In this document: one piece after another, positions 4,752 through 29,013 of the stretch
Position numbering within the stretch: position 1 is the stretch's first letter
Layout: every line of letters starts with the position of its first letter
DNA from: Candidatus Omnitrophota bacterium
GTDB taxonomy: Bacteria > Omnitrophota > Gorgyraeia > Ghiorseimicrobiales > Ghiorseimicrobiaceae
Length of the DNA: 64,000 bases
Direction of reading: 5' to 3'
Assembly (NCBI GenBank): GCA_030681595.1
Contig: JAUXSB010000003.1
Span: 31,207-95,206, forward strand
Program-made: the position numbers and the translations under genes
Notes under the pieces: model-generated
What the model was told of the DNA's origin: nothing
The model's input: the letters and a program-made list of their open reading frames with translations, nothing else
The model's database searches: none

Positions 4752-4799
4752 CTTTTAACTCCTTTAATGAACCCCGCAGATGGCGGGGCAAATTCGGGT

Positions 4800-5858
4800 T
4801 TATAACTTATGCCGCTTCGTTCTATAAGTTATACCCTCATTTAAAAGCGCATTTACAGTATCAACAAGATTAATCTGCGCCATACAGGTACGCGTGCACC
4901 TTCCGCAACCGGTACAGAAATAACGGTTATATTTATCCACGGAATATTTAAACTTACGGTAATATCTGTGCTTTTGCCTGCCGTCGCGCCCATGCCTAAA
5001 ATCTTCGCCTCCGGCAACTTTAGCGAAATCGTCCATCTGGCAATAATTCCAGATACGGTACCTAATGCCTTCATTTAAAGATAGTTCCATTTCATCTACC
5101 ACGTCGAAACAATAACAGGTTGGGCACACCGCGGTGCAATTTCCGCAGGCAACACACCTCTTTCCCACATTCTGCCAAACTTTAGAGTTAAAGCCTCTGT
5201 CAAAGGCGTCATATACTACGGGAAGAGCATCCCCTAATTCCTCCTTGAACACCTTCTTTTTTTCTTCTCTTATTTGCTCAAGCAAAGAAACCTCTGATTC
5301 TTTTGCCTCCCGGATATAGCCTAAACCTGTAACCAAACCTTCGCCTTTTTCTGAATTGATATGAATAATAAAACTTTTGCCTAAGTCTGTCAGCATCAGG
5401 TCATATCCGCCGCGGGGATTATGATTCCCCATCGAAGCACAGTTGGCAAATTTGTCGCAATAGTTGAGGCATTCAATACCAATTATAGTCATCTTATCCT
5501 TACGATTTAAATAATTGGGGTCTTCCGGGCTATCCCTAAATACCACATCCATACACTGTATTCCGGCAATATCGCAAGTATGTACCCCAAAAAGTATATA
5601 TTCCTCAAAAACATCTATTGCCTTTGCGGTCTTAAAAGGCCGAACACTAAACTTCAGCAGTTTCTCTTTCTGGGGAAAATAATATTTCTTGGGAGGAAGT
5701 ATCGTAGGAATATATTCCAAACATACTTCACTGATATCCCTTACCGGCCTAAAAACAAAAGAATTTTCCTTCTTTCTGGGCGCATAAAGCCGGGCCCTAC
5801 TCTTTAAATGTTCGAGCCATTTGCTCAAGCCCTCTTTCTGAATAATTGCGTATTTCAC
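4800..5858 (-). CDS. hydrogenase beta subunit, 4Fe-4S ferredoxin-like (AsrA-like)
   Basis: CVACGNCTAVCPTC and CTGCGRCTRTC motifs. I moved the start from the track TTG (5897) to the in-frame GTG at 5858, which is preceded by GAGGAG plus a 6-nt spacer. The 13 upstream codons are encoded by the conserved leader motif CTCATTGAGGAG. Confidence 0.7.
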   Translation of the reverse strand: MKYAIIQKEGLSKWLEHLKSRARLYAPRKKENSFVFRPVRDISEVCLEYIPTILPPKKYYFPQKEKLLKFSVRPFKTAKAIDVFEEYILFGVHTCDIAGIQCMDVVFRDSPEDPNYLNRKDKMTIIGIECLNYCDKFANCASMGNHNPRGGYDLMLTDLGKSFIIHINSEKGEGLVTGLGYIREAKESEVSLLEQIREEKKKVFKEELGDALPVVYDAFDRGFNSKVWQNVGKRCVACGNCTAVCPTCYCFDVVDEMELSLNEGIRYRIWNYCQMDDFAKVAGGEDFRHGRDGRQKHRYYRKFKYSVDKYNRYFCTGCGRCTRTCMAQINLVDTVNALLNEGITYRTKRHKL

Positions 5859-6020
5859 AAAATTCTCCTCAATGAGCACATAAGTTACAGAACACAATGA
5901 TGTAACTTATAAGTGCGAATTGATCCCGTTGAGTGCCTAAAAATTATAGTATAGAATTTTTAGGCATATTACGAAACGGGATAGATCCGATTAATGAGCC
6001 CCGAAGCTTCGGGGCGAATT
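5859..6020 (-). promoter_or_regulatory. conserved structured intergenic/leader cassette, copy 1 (extended, with two GGGATCAATTCG boxes)
   Basis: Shares with three other loci, read in minus sense: a GC stem-loop, GGGATCAATTC(C/G)G, hairpin B (cataagttac...gtaacttatg), then (A/G)TG(T/C)(G/C)CTCATTGAGGAGG and the start codon. Local perfect palindromes gcctaaaaatt-N9-aatttttaggc and gccccgaag-c-ttcggggc. Confidence 0.6.
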
Positions 6021-6046
6021 GATCCCAACGATATGTCGGGATGGCT

Positions 6047-6289
6047 TCATTTAAAATTAATCTTGGTTATCTCAAACTCCGGGCCATATTTTACTTTCTT
6101 TATCACAATGGTTAAGCCTGACCATTTTGTGCCAGAAGTAACCTCTTTAAAATGTTCTAAAAAATGTTGTGCCGTAATAGCGCCGAATTCAGAAAGCGTT
6201 ACGTGTATCTTTTTAATCTTACGGCGTGTTTTGCTTTCCTCGTTTTTAAGGTATTTTAGGATATTATCAATAAGGTGCGTTTCATGCAT
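6047..6289 (-). CDS. HypA-like nickel metallochaperone N-domain, lacking the zinc-finger half
   Basis: 80 aa starting MHETHL... (MHE Ni-binding N-terminus, matching the HypA N-domain pattern). There are no Cys residues, so the CxxC...CxxC Zn module is missing. Possibly truncated by the adjacent cassette. Confidence 0.4.
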   Translation of the reverse strand: MHETHLIDNILKYLKNEESKTRRKIKKIHVTLSEFGAITAQHFLEHFKEVTSGTKWSGLTIVIKKVKYGPEFEITKINFK

Positions 6290-6364
6290 ATAAGTTTTCT
6301 AGATTATGTTAAATTGTGAAATGTTTCACAAAGTATATATTACTGTAATATTTTTTATTGTCAA

Positions 6365-6612
6365 GAAAAATCTGCCAATGCCGCCGTTGGCGGCACCCCG
6401 CTATTCGGCGGTGGCTGGCGATTCCCGCCGTAGGCGAATCCGCCTACGGCGGAAGATTTTGCGCGATGCCGCACATACTTGTGCGGCGCAAGAAAATTTT
6501 ACAGACTTGCCGCGCCCGAACCCGCCCGACCAAACATTCGTCCAGTCCGACTTCGGCCTGCCCGAATTAAGTCTGGCGGGTCTGGCGGGTTCGGGCGCGG
6601 CGCAAGATTTTT
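6365..6612. other. GC-rich cluster of perfect palindromes (possible structured ncRNA or REP-like element)
   Basis: gccgcc-gtt-ggcggc; ccgccgtaggcg-gaatc-cgcctacggcgg (12-bp perfect stem); ccgcaca-tactt-gtgcgg; a long-range inverted repeat ccgcgcccgaacccgcc...ggcgggttcgggcgcgg (17 bp) followed by TTTTTTT. It sits in AT-rich intergenic DNA between the glycosidase stop and the hypA-like start. Confidence 0.5.
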
Positions 6613-6643
6613 TTAAAAAGTTTTACCGGAAAATTAACCGTGC

Positions 6644-7900
6644 TTAATCTACCGAGATTGTTTTACTTGCCGAAGAAACATTCCCTTTGTTGTCGTAGGC
6701 AAATAAATAAACCCGGTAAAGGCCTTTCTTAGAAGGTAATTCTACTTTTGCCGCGCCATCTCTTATCGTCAAGGAAACATCTATGAAATCATTAACGTAA
6801 TATTGTAAGATGCCTTCGTGTGTGGTACTTAGTTTAATTTCATAGCGTAATCTATCCTTCTCCTCATCTTCAGCAAAAAACCTTACATCTATAATCTCGC
6901 CCGGTTTTACGCTGGCCCTATCCAGCGTAAAGAGTTTAATCTGTGGTGGCATATTCAATGGTTTTTTGCCGGTATAAAACTCATAGACAACCCAAAATGG
7001 CAGCCTTTTAAACATGGAATAATTTATATTCCACCATGTCATTGATTCCTGCGTTGTCTCGCCTAAATGAAAAACAAAGCCGCCTAAATTAAAACCCCTA
7101 AATTCCTCTATTTGACTGCAAAGCTCGCGATACCAGATTGCCTTTGCTTTATCATTAAGCTCAATTGCGGCGCCGTTTTCTTCCTTTCTGGATTGTGAAG
7201 CTATCGGCGGGCCAAATTCGCTTAAGGCATACGGCTTATTCATTTTTAAATAAAGATATGTACCGTGACAGGGGCGCAAAGTCGGGTACACATTCATTCC
7301 TATAATATCTACGGAGGGCATATATTCTTTTATATACTTTAGCTCCACATAGTTTGAGCCTGTATACATTACCGGATGTTTTGGGTCTATCTTATGGATT
7401 TTTTCTGCCAAATAATTTATAAATTTTGCCAAGGCAATTTTTTCATCCTCATCCTGCGTAAAAAATATGCACTCATTTCCTACGCCCCATATTAAGATAG
7501 CGTCGTGGCCTTTATATCGCTCGACATAATCCAGCACTTCCTTTTCTTTCTTCCGTTTATACCCGATGTCGAAATAGCTTACCCCCTTCTCCGGCAAGGC
7601 GCTGTTAATCCATATTCCTGCGCATACATAAATGCCGTATTTTCGCGCCTTCTCTAAATATTCTTCTGTCCCTTGATCTATGCCCCAGGTGCGTACAGTA
7701 TTTGCCCCTAATTCCTTAGCTAGCTTAAGATAATCTTCGCCGCCTTTACCCTTATGCAAGCCGCATCCAGCACCATTAATATAAAAAGGCGCTCCGTCAA
7801 CTAATAGCTGCCATGCGCCTTCCTCACCGTCAATTTTTACTTCTGTGCAATGCGCAATAGTGGAAAAAAATAAAAATAGCAAAGCAAAAAAACATCGCAT
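6644..7900 (-). CDS. secreted glycoside hydrolase, clan GH-A TIM barrel (GH5-like) with C-terminal beta-sandwich domain
   Basis: 418 aa with N-terminal signal peptide MRCFFALLFLFFSTIAHC, a GNECIF (NE catalytic-acid-like) motif and a TIM-barrel-like pattern. Confidence 0.5.
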   Translation of the reverse strand: MRCFFALLFLFFSTIAHCTEVKIDGEEGAWQLLVDGAPFYINGAGCGLHKGKGGEDYLKLAKELGANTVRTWGIDQGTEEYLEKARKYGIYVCAGIWINSALPEKGVSYFDIGYKRKKEKEVLDYVERYKGHDAILIWGVGNECIFFTQDEDEKIALAKFINYLAEKIHKIDPKHPVMYTGSNYVELKYIKEYMPSVDIIGMNVYPTLRPCHGTYLYLKMNKPYALSEFGPPIASQSRKEENGAAIELNDKAKAIWYRELCSQIEEFRGFNLGGFVFHLGETTQESMTWWNINYSMFKRLPFWVVYEFYTGKKPLNMPPQIKLFTLDRASVKPGEIIDVRFFAEDEEKDRLRYEIKLSTTHEGILQYYVNDFIDVSLTIRDGAAKVELPSKKGLYRVYLFAYDNKGNVSSASKTISVD

Positions 7901-8543: not shown

Positions 8544-8545
8544 GT

Positions 8546-8583
8546 GTCAAGCTGCAAGCTGCAAGCTCCAAGCTGCAAGCTTT
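8546..8583. repeat. heptamer microsatellite (caagctg/caagctc) x5
   Basis: caagctgcaagctgcaagctccaagctgcaagc read directly. Confidence 0.6.
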
Positions 8584-8595
8584 TAGCCTGAAGCC

Positions 8596-8650
8596 TGTGG
8601 CTTTGGCTATATTGAAAGCCAAACCACTGCCCTCTGGCTGGTGGCTTGTA
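8596..8650. repeat. single degenerate copy of the 44-bp repeat family (ggctttggctatattgaaagccaaacc core)
   Basis: tgtggctttggctatattgaaagccaaaccactgccctctggc is ~88% identical to the unit of the array at 35608-35795. Confidence 0.6.
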
Positions 8651-8679
8651 GCATGAAGCATATTTTCTCGCTACTTCTT

Positions 8680-10960: not shown

Positions 10961-11631
10961 TTATTTCTTTCTTAACTTTTCTACTGCCTCGGAAACCATT
11001 TTACCTACCAGATCCTTGCATCCTAAACCAAACGCCAAAGCAAATCCTATCCCTAAAGACGCCAAAACAATGGTTATTAAAATATTTATAACCGCGGCGC
11101 CTATACTAAGCTGCTCTAACGCAATCACTACCGCAAGGACAGCAATAGCCACTTCAACAACCTTGGCTAAAATCTTTGCTTGTTCAATTCCGGCGTTTAT
11201 TGCCGCGGTACGTACTGTTGCCGCTAAGAACGTTGAAAGGAATATACCTAGCGCCAAAACAATAATCGCGATAATAACATTGGGCACATACAGTACCATC
11301 CTGTTTAACAGGTCTGCGGCTACGGTCAAACCGACAGCATTAACCGCCACCATTATCACGATCAAGACAACCAGCCAATAACATATAGCCCCTATCAATT
11401 CCGCAAGAGTTAATTTTATACCGCCTTTACTCAAGAAAGAATTAGCCCCAATCTGATCTGCGATAGAATCAATCTTGATAAGCTTAAAAAGCCTGGTAAT
11501 TAAATTCTGTACAAGTTTGGCGATAAGCCAACCTATGACTAAAATTACAATTACCAAAAGCAAATTGCTCACTAAAGTACCAATACGGTTGAGCAGGTTA
11601 CTTACCGGCTCAAAAAGAATTGTTTTCCACA
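10961..11631 (-). CDS. membrane protein with conserved TM-helix repeats (mechanosensitive-channel-associated TM_helix type)
   Basis: Hydrophobic repeats. I moved the start from the track GTG (11656) to ATG 11631, preceded by AAGGAGG plus 4 nt. The track N-terminus SSLKGGS is the translated leader motif TCGTCATTGAAAGGAGG. Confidence 0.4.
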
Positions 11632-11828
11632 TACTGCCTCCTTTCAATGACGACACAACTTATGGAGTCACGGACGGCATAAGTTGTATGTCGGAATTGA
11701 TGCCGAAAGCTACGAGAAAATTTGTAGCAAATTTTCGAGTGTTTTGCTTTCGGCGCAATGCATAACTTACAAATTCCAAAACCTCCGGATGAACGAGTTA
11801 TTTACGCGTAGTAAAACCTACCTTTTCA
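11632..11828 (-). promoter_or_regulatory. conserved structured intergenic/leader cassette, copy 2
   Basis: Sense orientation: gccgaaagc[aaaacactcgaaaatttg-cta-caaattttctcg]gctttcggc, ATCAATTCCG, hairpin acaacttatg...cataagttgt, GTGTCGTCATTGAAAGGAGG, cagt, ATG. It fills the whole pyrG-stop to next-start gap. Confidence 0.6.
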
Positions 11829-25665: not shown

Positions 25666-25904
25666 TGACTAACCTTAATTTCATCCCCTTTACCGTGATC
25701 CTTATAGACCTTACAAATCTTACAAACGCTGACATCTATGCCGGATTCGCCTTTACAGATAGTACCTTTTATTATCCAGCAAGGATATTCCTGTTTTTTG
25801 TATGCCGCGCAACTTGGCGCCCCACCGGGCTTAATCTCACAACCTCTTACTTCCCAACAAGCTGTTTTTCCGGACCAGAATCCTGTTCCTTTTGGTAAAG
25901 CCAT
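25662..25904 (-). CDS. small Cys/Trp-rich protein (two-CW-like)
   Basis: 80 aa with motifs ACWEVRGCE and YPCWIIKGTIC and 8 Cys. The ATG is preceded by GGGGAGG plus 5 nt. Confidence 0.45.
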   Translation of the reverse strand: MALPKGTGFWSGKTACWEVRGCEIKPGGAPSCAAYKKQEYPCWIIKGTICKGESGIDVSVCKICKVYKDHGKGDEIKVSQ

Positions 25905-26040
25905 CTTTTCCTCCCCTCAATGACGGCATAACTTATGGAGCCAGAGACGACATAAGTTATCAGCCGGAATTGATCCCGATAGTTACAAGAAAATTTAGTA
26001 TAAATTTTCGCAGTGTTTTACTATCGGGACAATGATCCCC
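25905..26040 (-). promoter_or_regulatory. conserved structured intergenic/leader cassette, copy 3
   Basis: Sense orientation: tcccgatagt[aaaacactgcgaaaattta-tac-taaattttc]ttgtaactatcggga, TCAATTCCG, hairpin cataacttatg...cataagttatg, CCGTCATTGAGGGGAGG, aaaag, ATG. Confidence 0.6.
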
Positions 26041-28098: not shown

Positions 28099-28877
28099 TG
28101 CTTTATCTCTTCATACAGCTCAAATGCCTGTTTTACCTTCGCCTTCTTATGTACGATTTCCCTCACTGCCATAATCATTCCAACAGGACAGTCAGATTGA
28201 AAAATATTCCTGCCCATATCCACCCCTATCGCTCCGTCGGACACTGCATTAAACGCCAGCTCCAGGGCAGCTTTTTCCTCAATTTTTTTTCCTCCGGCAA
28301 TAACCACCGGAACCGGGCATTCCTTAACTACCTGCGTAAAATTCTCGCAATAATAAGTTTTTACAAAATGCGCACCCAATTCCGCGGCAATCCTGCAACA
28401 CAGGCTCAAATAACGCGCGTCGCGGTTCATTTCTTTGCCTACGGCAGTAACTGCTAATACCGGAATGCCGTACTTTTGGCCTTCATCTACAAGATGAGCA
28501 AGGCTCAACAGCGTCTCTTTCTCGTATTCGCTACCCACAAATATCGAAAGAGCAACCGCGGAAACATTTAACCGTAAAGCATCCTCCATTGAAACAGTGA
28601 GCCCTTCGTTAGCTAAGGATTTTCCGATAACGCTTGTGCCTCCGGAAACGCGCAAAACAACCGGGACGTCATCTTGGGCATTAACGGACGCACGCAAGAT
28701 ACCCCGAGTAAGCATAAGAGAATCCGCGTACGGCAGAAGCGGCTTAATAGTTTCTTTCGGCTCTTCTAAACCTGAAGTAGGCCCTAAAAAATAACCATGG
28801 TCTATAGCCAGCATTACAGTACGTCCTGTCTCCGGTTTTATTATACGAGATAACCTGTTTTTTAATCCCCAATCCAT
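28086..28877 (-). CDS. DhnA-type class I aldolase family protein
   Basis: I moved the start from track ATG 28901 to ATG 28877, preceded by GGAGG plus 6 nt; the track N-terminus SSLRRKS is the translated leader motif. AIDHGYFLGP and GAHFVKTYY motifs. Confidence 0.55.
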   Translation of the reverse strand: MDWGLKNRLSRIIKPETGRTVMLAIDHGYFLGPTSGLEEPKETIKPLLPYADSLMLTRGILRASVNAQDDVPVVLRVSGGTSVIGKSLANEGLTVSMEDALRLNVSAVALSIFVGSEYEKETLLSLAHLVDEGQKYGIPVLAVTAVGKEMNRDARYLSLCCRIAAELGAHFVKTYYCENFTQVVKECPVPVVIAGGKKIEEKAALELAFNAVSDGAIGVDMGRNIFQSDCPVGMIMAVREIVHKKAKVKQAFELYEEIKHKPR

Positions 28878-29013
28878 GGATTTCCTCCTCAATGACGACA
28901 TAATTTACGGAAACGAAGTTGACGTAAATTATATGTCGGAATTGATCCCGCCGAATGTACCAAAATTATAGAATATAATTTTGGTACATTTTATGAGGCG
29001 GGATAAACATTAA
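28878..29013 (-). promoter_or_regulatory. conserved structured intergenic/leader cassette, copy 4
   Basis: Sense orientation: cccgcc...[gtaccaaaattata-ttc-tataattttggtac]...ggcggg, ATCAATTCCG, hairpin gacatataatttacg...cgtaaattatgtc, GTCATTGAGGAGG, aaatcc, ATG. Confidence 0.6.

Follow-up and report, generated by a model that had tools for sequence, protein, structure and literature searches.

Genomic context of the palindrome island

We analysed a stretch of 64,000 nucleotides (nt), hereafter the window (64 kb, G+C content 39%), from a Candidatus Omnitrophota metagenome-assembled genome (MAG), with a focus on a G+C-rich island of palindromes at 6374-6608 that lies directly upstream of the promoter of a hypA-like gene and a [NiFe]-hydrogenase operon. 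The proteins of this region, MDP1852618-624, are encoded on a 307-kb NCBI contig. On the minus strand, genes and features follow each other in the order membrane pyrophosphatase (PPase), RluA, GH2-like protein, island, promoter, HypA-like protein and, 3' of the latter, the four-subunit [NiFe]-hydrogenase operon. All real-looking open reading frames (ORFs) of at least 70 amino acids (aa) in the 64 kb are on the minus strand, and the island therefore stands between two co-directional units. The features that frame it are:

10800-8680, minus strand: membrane pyrophosphatase (PPase)
8543-7905, minus strand: RluA
7900-6644, minus strand: GH2-like protein, stop codon at 6644
6364-6337, minus strand: sigma-70-like promoter of the hypA-like/hydrogenase operon, TTGACA-16-TAATAT, 10/12 matches
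6330-6315, minus strand: CRP-type perfect palindrome TGTGA-AACATT-TCACA (TGTGA-N6-TCACA), between the -10 box and the HypA-like start codon
6289-6047, minus strand: HypA-like gene, 80 aa
6306-6647, plus strand: ORF of 113 aa across the island

The sigma-70-like promoter is the boundary of the island and lies outside the repeat cluster.

Structure and modular composition of the island

Over 6374-6608 the G+C content was 0.64 as compared to 0.39 for the window, the highest G+C peak in the 64 kb. The island is structured far beyond chance on both strands: the minimum free energy of the plus strand was -149.7 kcal/mol versus -97.0 +/- 4.9 kcal/mol for dinucleotide shuffles (z -10.7, 0/200), and the minus-strand fold gave a z-score of -8.9. 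An earlier note, made from the sequence alone, had described a GC-rich palindrome island with stems of 6, 12 and 7 bp and a 17-bp perfect long-range inverted repeat ending in a T7 run. The island was borne out, with hairpins at the place given there; with small corrections, the stems have 7 bp (h1), 12 bp (h2) and 8 bp (h3, neither 6 nor 7), and the long-range repeat does end in T7 with a perfect part of 18 bp. Four modules, U1 to U4, were delineated:

6374-6420: module U1, imperfect palindrome GCCAATGCCGCCGTTGGCGGCACCCCGCTATTCGGCGGTGGCTGGCG with a 7-bp hairpin at 6379-6395
6379-6395: hairpin h1, TGCCGCC/GGCGGCA, 7 bp, perfect
6421-6456: module U2, ATTC-CCGCCGTAGGCG-AATC-CGCCTACGGCGG-AAGA, 12-bp perfect stem
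6425-6452: hairpin h2, CCGCCGTAGGCG/CGCCTACGGCGG, 12 bp, perfect, 4-nt loop
6459-6491: module U3, TTGC-GCGAT-GCCGCACA-TACT-TGTGCGGC-GCAA, 8-bp perfect stem
6468-6487: hairpin h3, GCCGCACA/TGTGCGGC, 8 bp, perfect
6483-6505: left copy of direct repeat 'a', GCGGCGCAAGAAAATTTTACAGA, flanking the U4 body
6506-6596: U4 body, long hairpin with the imperfectly palindromic core CCGCCCGAC...GTCTGGCGG
6509-6531 and 6579-6601: arms of the long-range inverted repeat, 23 nt, 96%, 18 bp perfect
6597-6629: right copy of direct repeat 'a', GCGGCGCAAGATTTTTTTAAAAAGTTTTACCGG, holding the T7 run, directly 3' of the GH2-like stop
6608-6614, plus strand: T7 run after the extended U4 stem, resembling an intrinsic terminator; on the minus strand an A-tract ahead of the hairpin

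Apart from h2 and h3, the window has no perfect G+C-rich hairpin of 8 bp or more. U2 is one substitution, at its centre, short of the fully perfect 28-nt palindrome CCGCCGTAGGCGGATCCGCCTACGGCGG, and folds at -28.7 kcal/mol (z -5.8). A direct repeat (D2, 6374-6392 versus 6418-6436, 79%) places U1 and U2 as head-to-tail copies 44 nt apart, and U1 is a degenerate, decayed tandem copy of the U2 type. The whole of U4 covers 6506-6608, with the right arm running 5 nt into repeat 'a'; past a 2-nt bulge the long-range repeat continues to CTTG/CAAG and is followed by A and T7. U4 folds at -64 to -67 kcal/mol, with z about -6.5 for both strands, and its body contains a 9-nt tandem duplication (GTCTGGCGG x2, 6571-6588). 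The two copies of repeat 'a', which is 23-26 nt long, form direct repeat D1 (26 nt, 77% identity, 114-nt spacing). Hairpin energies on the minus strand were -16.5, -28.7, -27.8 and -67.4 kcal/mol.

The modules are joined by a linker, represented by CGGCGSAAGAWWWTTTT, of which the form CGGCG[GC]AAGAWWWTTTT recurs 3' of U2, U3 and U4 (D1, D4). Termini of the type CCGCC...GGCGG are found in U1, U2 and the U4 core, and also in two related contigs described below, namely in an extra palindrome of L123 and in the L120 hairpin GGCGGG..CCCGCC. The tetranucleotide GTAG/CTAC occurs in the island in U2 only, where it is paired inside the 12-bp stem (6430-6433 / 6444-6447), and GTAGGSG was not enriched in the window (12 matches versus 8.5 expected).

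Module content of the spacer in close relatives

The contig L123 (ENA ERZ21828306, 76 kb) shares the gene order PPase-RluA-hypA-hydrogenase with the window at 84-90% nucleotide identity. Its RluA-HypA spacer of 202 nt keeps the promoter (TTGACA...TAAGAT), the TGTGA-N6-TCACA palindrome, U3 and one copy of repeat 'a', which lies just 3' of RluA and is homologous to the right copy of the window. U1-U2 and the U4 body are missing, as is the GH2-like gene, and RluA is directly followed by the spacer (L123:6434-6637); elsewhere the spacer has another palindrome, of 26 nt and the form CCGCC..GGCGG. Both the window and the 98% identical strain L124 have the GH2-like gene, and the next-best homolog of its product is only 60% identical. 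U3 is the only module with an L123 ortholog, TCGGTAAAATTTTTCTTGCGCCGCAAAAGGATTTGCG, in which one pair has changed in a compensatory way (C:G to A:T) and another is broken. This comparison points to U3 as the backbone hairpin and the only module ancestral to the spacer. When U1-U2 was compared with the empty site of L123, no convincing clean target-site duplication was found.

A different combination was found in the metagenome contig L115 (ORJL010573464.1), which is 98% identical to window positions 6323-6470 and contains the promoter, U1 (with 2 substitutions), U2 and the edge of U3. Identity ends at 6470/6471, with the switch at the GCGCGATGCC edge of U3; past GCGCGATGCC follow A8 (T8 in gene orientation) and the 3' end of a flavodoxin gene, so that both the U3 stem and U4 are missing. 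This flavodoxin gene is 95% identical to that of L120, a Logan contig from run SRR13727519, which also holds the window strain; identity between L115 and L120 ends right after GGCATCGCGC. The flavodoxin, MDP1853012, shares its accession series with the window genes MDP1852618-624, and its gene most likely comes from the same MAG as the window.

The 3' flank of the flavodoxin gene in L120 consists of T8, then GGCGGGGCATCGCGC and then CCGCCTGACTTCATTCGGGCAG. These last 22 nt, CCGCCTGACTTCATTCGGGCAG, match CCGCCAGACTTAATTCGGGCAG of the U4 core in the window at 20/22 positions, the recurring stretch of about 23 nt being CTGCCCGAAT[T/G]AAGTC[T/A]GGCGGG. Both L120 and L001, the contig of the GH2 side, were assembled by Logan at k=31 and end at the matching point of the U4 core, as is expected where a repeat exceeds k=31. 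The flavodoxin gene of two other runs (at least 90% protein identity; 90.5% nucleotide identity to L115) is followed by 28 AT-rich bases and then the next gene, with no G+C-rich element, so that the site is empty there. The modules are thus separable, each being present or absent independently in close relatives, and the L120 match indicates a second locus for at least U4 within the genome of the window.

The same relatives bear on the 113-aa ORF, which the earlier note had taken as a by-product of GC-rich non-coding DNA. The ORF does exist at 6306-6647. It had no Pfam match, its exact sequence was absent from the protein collection, and the reading frame is destroyed in L123, where the ORF is mostly missing, and in L115; both contigs are without large parts of the sequence. 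The ORF is accordingly described here as a by-product of G+C-rich non-coding DNA and no gene. That the island is nevertheless a protein-coding remnant, or a horizontal fragment from a G+C-rich donor acquired with the GH2-like gene, is scarcely probable. The ORF itself and the joint absence of the GH2-like gene and U4 in L123 would fit this idea, as would the accession MDP1852621, which suggests an annotated coding sequence (CDS) here; against it stand the missing Pfam match, a similarity to plasmids and phages no better than chance, a composition that is that of palindromes and not of a gene, and the recurrence of the U4 core 3' of the flavodoxin gene.

MDP1852621 sits between the HypA-like protein (MDP1852620) and the GH2-like protein (MDP1852622), corresponding to window positions 6290-6643. 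Judged by this accession numbering only, the annotation of the depositors probably calls a spurious CDS within the island.

Searches for RNA families and conservation with the hydrogenase operon

The earlier note had proposed an Rfam search of this segment. No match was obtained at the gathering threshold in the whole window, nor at E<=10 over 5800-7000, where the sole results were noise (e.g. a microRNA and Plasmodium RUF6), and a scan for tRNA and tmRNA returned nothing at the island.

A free-standing small RNA (sRNA) of about 265 nt with four hairpins could in principle be read from the plus strand, starting from a promoter-like site, TTGTGA-16-TATATT (6314-6341), divergent from the operon promoter, and ending at U4+T7. 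Besides this promoter-like site, the textbook-looking terminator with its long G+C stem followed by T7, a fold that is slightly better on the plus than on the minus strand (z -10.7) and a closing stem, AAGAUUUUGCGC/GCGCAAGAUUUU, that uses G-U pairs possible only on the plus strand speak for such an RNA. We nonetheless regard it as quite improbable. U4+T7 is absent in L123 and L115 and U1-U2 is absent in L123, and with halves missing in these relatives the putative sRNA is not conserved as a unit even at 84-98% nucleotide identity. In addition to the lack of an Rfam match, the modules occur separately in unrelated contexts, one of them within a coding region (see below), nearly all stems are perfect, and all other genes in the 64 kb are on the minus strand.

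Conservation was followed in 61 genome loci retrieved via the 352-aa hydrogenase subunit, of which 52 carry the HypA-like gene directly upstream of the operon. By blastn, nhmmer and G+C profile, neither similar sequence nor a G+C island was found upstream of the HypA-like/hydrogenase operon in these relatives. G+C peaks in L046 turned out to be tRNAs, and those in L034 and L055 were unrelated sequences.

On the minus strand, the position immediately upstream of the operon and the alternative pairings possible among GCCGCC/GGCGGC runs would suit a cis-regulatory leader or riboswitch of the hypA-like/hydrogenase operon. The island is, however, upstream of the -35/-10 elements (6364-6337), which are kept in L123 and L115, and consequently lies outside the 5' untranslated region of the operon and is not its leader. 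It is also missing from about 50 relatives in which both the hypA-like gene and the operon are retained, is mostly absent in L123 and has no Rfam match, all of which leaves this option very improbable. The non-coding RNA or riboswitch that the earlier note had kept as an alternative is thus now unlikely, given the location upstream of -35/-10 and the loss of U4+T7 in L123 and L115.

Palindromes of the U2 type at other loci

Further copies of the modules in the 64-kb window were not detected by pattern search, perfect-hairpin scan or blastn-short, and the 12-bp palindrome, for which a search of the genome had been suggested, has no other copy in this stretch; the 28-nt palindrome did appear in other contigs. 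A metagenome scan with the pattern GCCGTAGGCG-N3-5-CGCCTACGGC returned 56 contigs, most of which hold other hairpin families that share the core only, being terminator- or REP-like hairpins from G+C-rich taxa. The full perfect 28-nt palindrome CCGCCGTAGGCGGATCCGCCTACGGCGG, with GGATCC at its centre, was present in five contigs with unrelated flanks (L078, L080, L091, L094 and L115), and L095 carries a one-base variant. L094 and L095 belong to Omnitrophota, and L080 groups with proteins of Verrucomicrobiota/Kiritimatiellota; its U2-type palindrome has classical repetitive extragenic palindromic (REP) sequences of the GTAG+hairpin kind as neighbours. Distant-mode searches of plasmid and phage collections gave chance matches or nothing, and viral contigs scanned for U2 and the U4 core gave nothing.

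In L094 (2563-2598) the 28-nt palindrome lies in frame within RnfC and encodes SAVGGSAYGGS. It occupies a loop that comprises between 0 and 14 residues in homologs of 72-77% identity. The copy is flanked by the direct repeat AGCTTT(C); direct repeats of 6-7 nt flank the U2-type palindrome in L094 and L078, but not in L080 or L091. This loop of variable length is consistent with an insertion and is no proof of one. In the 76% identical homolog P0123 the loop reads SAFSLQPSAFSFQL, with a SAFS duplication of its own.

These copies bear on a further explanation, in which a local, non-mobile multi-hairpin terminator or insulator evolved in place and the similarities elsewhere are convergent G+C-rich terminators. 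U3 is conserved in L123 with one compensatory pair, A/T tracts follow the hairpins on both strands, and many of the 56 GCCGTAGGCG-core matches are common terminator-like hairpins from other taxa, as this explanation would have it. Convergence would not, however, be expected to produce the whole 28-nt palindrome including its loop identically in five unrelated contexts. One palindrome copy lies within coding sequence, the U4 core recurs in the same genome at a site that is empty in relatives, and four stacked hairpins of up to -67 kcal/mol exceed what termination needs, L123 managing with about 125 nt. Taken together, we consider evolution in place unlikely, if less so than an sRNA.

A 194-nt nested palindrome was observed in L061 (6816-7009), between hydrogenase small- and large-subunit genes that overlap in the window. 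It consists of outer arms GTCATTGCGAGGA/TCCTCGCAATGAC, inner arms TTCCGCC/GGCGGAA and the centre CTACGGCGGATCCGCCGTAG, and its GGCGGATCCGCC core is identical to that in U2.

Comparison with known repeat systems

REPs and bacterial interspersed mosaic elements (BIMEs) are known from Enterobacteria and Pseudomonas, and GTAG/CGTC-tagged REPs from the Planctomycetes-Verrucomicrobia-Chlamydiae (PVC) superphylum (Di Nocera et al. 2013, PMC3733652; Nunvar et al. 2010, PMC2817692; Ton-Hoang et al. 2012, PMC3333891). REPs are typically extragenic, 3' of genes and between unidirectional or convergent ORFs (PMC3733652). The island is likewise extragenic, extending from the GH2-like stop (6644) to the next co-directional promoter, and the second U4 follows the flavodoxin stop. 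U1, U2 and U3 are G+C-rich palindromes of 33-47 nt with perfect stems of 7, 12 and 8 bp, to be compared with the 20-40-bp palindromes of REPs, copies of which are in some species also found within genes. As in BIMEs, related but non-identical types stand side by side, here as four modules in 240 nt with short recurrent linkers; the coincidence with rearrangement breakpoints and the plausible side effects as terminator or mRNA stabiliser are further common traits. Other features differ. The module termini are CCGCC/GGCGG, and the 28-nt U2-type palindrome is fully perfect and hence without orientation. REPs in BIMEs alternate in orientation; here the near-perfect U2 has no defined orientation, and U1 and U2 run head to tail.

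Resemblance to other systems is partial. Like a REPIN (Bertels and Rainey 2011, cited in PMC3733652), U4 is a hairpin of about 100 nt with two inverted 23-nt arms around a spacer. Its arms are not palindromic REPs, however, two copies of the core are known, and a 23-26-nt direct repeat is no REPIN feature. At 77% identity, this flanking repeat of 23-26 nt is also too long for a usual target-site duplication; U4 is absent in L123. The in-frame palindrome in the length-tolerant RnfC loop of L094 recalls the Rickettsia palindromic elements, which are about 100-150 bp long and Rickettsia-specific, whereas here the unit measures 28-36 nt with a single intragenic case. Rho-independent terminators are resembled by U4+T7 (plus strand) and the U1 hairpin+T5 (minus strand), by A/T tracts on both sides and by the position at a gene 3' end. 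The differences are four hairpins over 240 nt, stems of up to 18-23 bp, modules at unrelated loci and, on the coding (minus) strand, broken U tracts set at some distance from the stems.

REPs of the classical kind, with GTAG as a terminal tag and the form (C)GTAGGGGCGRGC-TT-GCYCGCCC, were observed in L022 (1940-1970, 2490-2570 and 8700-8820) and L061 (8950-9020). They belong to Hainich bins of Omnitrophota GWA2_41_15; their stems covary, and five copies occur in 9 kb, some pairs being 50-90 nt apart. In L055 (1003-1160, Omnitrophota CG1_02_44_16) a hypD-like gene is closely preceded by an unrelated island of perfect hairpins with a G+C content of 0.72, which contains GCCTGCC..GGCAGGC and TCCCGCC-AAA-GGCGGGA and is bounded by CTTGGTTTGGTTTGG inverted repeats.

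Interpretation and proposed mechanism

We favour, as the probable explanation, that the island is a BIME-like mosaic of dispersed palindromic repeats (U1-U4), which probably also acts as a terminator or insulator. The modules also stand at further loci of this genome and in the genomes of other Omnitrophota/PVC bacteria. We class the island as REP/BIME-like and make no claim to strict membership of the REPs defined by GTAG and REP-associated tyrosine transposases (RAYTs). The earlier note had preferred a DNA-level REP/BIME-like element to an old structured RNA. This view gains support from the lack of an RNA family and from modules in unrelated contexts, and also from conservation: the island is not conserved with the operon, and the nearest syntenic relative is without most of it. 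REP/BIME-like elements are well known in other bacteria and new for Omnitrophota, for which our literature search found none described.

Several observations weigh against this interpretation. REPs of the GTAG/CGTC super-families carry an unpaired GTAG (or CGTC) at one end of the stem-loop (PMC3733652). The island has no such unpaired terminal tag; the GTAG of U2 is paired and the other modules have none. It is also a single cluster in 64 kb, a copy density far below that of classical REPs with their more than 100 copies per genome, and the negative search for further module copies in the window counts in the same direction, as does the Pfam search of ten small window ORFs, in which no Y1_Tnp domain was found and no transposase identified. 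The presence/absence pattern in L123 alone cannot separate insertion from deletion. The second U4 copy is known only over about 23 nt and by inference from the contig breaks. L115 could in principle be misassembled, although the 10-15 nt shared at the junction are too few to give rise to a k-mer chimera. The minus-strand U tracts are discontinuous and start 6-9 nt after the stems, and a role as terminator or insulator and in 3'-end protection is plausible on the basis of sequence only. The compensatory change in U3 gives the only direct hint of selection on structure.

If the island is such a mosaic, palindromic modules would have accreted onto a short ancestral spacer holding only U3, located between the 3' end of the PPase-RluA-GH2-like unit and the hypA-like/[NiFe]-hydrogenase promoter. 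The modules may have spread at the DNA level via their hairpins, either with the help of a Y1/HUH transposase of the REP type that works in trans on single-stranded DNA, or through fold-back/template-switch duplication. The left arm of U4 is an inverted copy of the right arm plus the first bases of repeat 'a', and template switching would explain both the perfect 18-bp arms of U4 and its flanking direct repeat of 23-26 nt.

On the minus strand the modules would form the transcribed 3' end of the unit upstream. With a AAAAUUUUCUU-type tract after each of them, the very stable hairpins could then keep transcription from running on into the hydrogenase promoter, which is regulated separately, and shield the 3' end of the upstream mRNA. 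A terminator-like hairpin, GCCAA..TTGGC (6391-6374, minus strand), is followed by AGATTTTTCT (T5) directly before the -35 box and was the one terminator-scan match on the minus strand. On the plus strand, U4+T7 could stop antisense transcription into the GH2-like gene; the window contains no plus-strand gene that it might terminate. The cluster may also serve as a recombination breakpoint, as in the L115 junction.

This G+C-rich, hairpin-dense island in an AT-rich genome should be annotated as repeat DNA and not as gene, sRNA or riboswitch. Intergenic spacers in this lineage are remodelled one module at a time. Three separate differences from the 84-90% identical relative were counted in about 2 kb of window DNA around the hypA-like gene. 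Such clusters coincide with contig breaks and one rearrangement junction, which matters for MAG assembly, annotation and operon prediction; if the modules act as insulators, they would also bear on the separate control of the hydrogenase operon.

A bolder proposal, to which we give little credence, is that Omnitrophota and other PVC bacteria carry undescribed self-propagating palindromes of about 28-70 nt marked by CCGCC...GGCGG termini in place of a GTAG tag, capable of nesting and mosaic-building and of landing in frame in coding loops, as in RnfC of L094, and moved by other means than a classical RAYT, for instance by hairpin-primed template switching. If true, this class of palindromes would build both the present island and the nested palindrome of L061:6816-7009 by insertion into or next to one another.

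A second repeat family in the window

A second family of hairpin elements, of about 80 nt, was also observed; it is better supported as a repeat family than the island. The element comprises CGGGAUCAAUUC, a 14-bp covarying stem and UCAUUGAGGAGG, and often ends at a start codon. Its copies, and those of a 'hairpin A' that precedes each full copy, are located as follows:

5856-5929, 11628-11706, 25902-25979 and 28873-28951, minus strand, and 4783-4859, plus strand: full copies in the window
5975-6028, minus strand: partial copy in the window
L123, 5615-5691 (minus strand) and 5732-5812 (plus strand): copies in L123
L021, 5133-5213 (minus strand) and 5257-5348 (plus strand): copies in L021
L095:4231-4315, L019:5108-5184 and L002:4724-4802: copies in three further contigs
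5930-5990, 11706-11770, 25979-26040 and 28951-29000, minus strand: 'hairpin A', e.g. the 17-bp perfect palindrome 28954-28990

In four window copies the end lies 5-7 nt ahead of the start codon of an unrelated gene (a hydrogenase subunit, a DeoC-like aldolase, an 80-aa ORF and an MscS-like gene), and these copies hence supply the Shine-Dalgarno sequence. One copy, in antisense orientation, extends over the last 20 codons of the 352-aa gene. A covariance model built from 4 copies gave 12 matches in 5 Omnitrophota genomes. In these 12 sequences 15/22 pairs showed compensatory changes and 97% of cells were paired, which 0/500 shuffles reached. The copies in L123 and L021 form head-to-head doublets. 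Two window copies are absent from the orthologous L123 sites, and a Logan contig breaks inside one. Rfam does not contain the element, for which a mobile leader cassette and a new cis-acting RNA are both possible readings.

'Hairpin A' has the base ATCCCG../..CGGGAT. The upper part differs between copies and is in every case an AT-rich palindrome of the AAAATT..AATTTT type. The sequence at L043:1238-1256 (ATCCCGCCTGCGGCGGGAT) resembles 'hairpin A' without the AT-rich insert, which suggests, at the level of sequence, palindromes nested in the loops of palindromes.

Further observations at the locus

The TGTGA-N6-TCACA palindrome is conserved in L115 and L123 (L123:6596-6611), and this CRP-type site suggests that a regulator of the CRP/FNR family may control the hydrogenase operon. 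The 'HypA' of the window has only 80 aa; the N-terminal MHE nickel-binding start is present, the zinc-finger part is missing, and the protein matches positions 1-68 of 112 of Pfam HypA. This short HypA-like form stands directly upstream of the hydrogenase operon in 52/61 related loci.

The presence or absence of the GH2-like gene is a gene-level difference adjoining the repeat cluster. Directly upstream of the RluA start, a 7-base tandem repeat, AGCTTGC/AGCTTGG, occurs in 5 units (minus strand, 8544-8583). The PPase-RluA spacer (8544-8679) is unalignable with L123, where two of the 80-nt hairpin elements stand instead. The gene strand bias is unusually complete across the window (1-64000).

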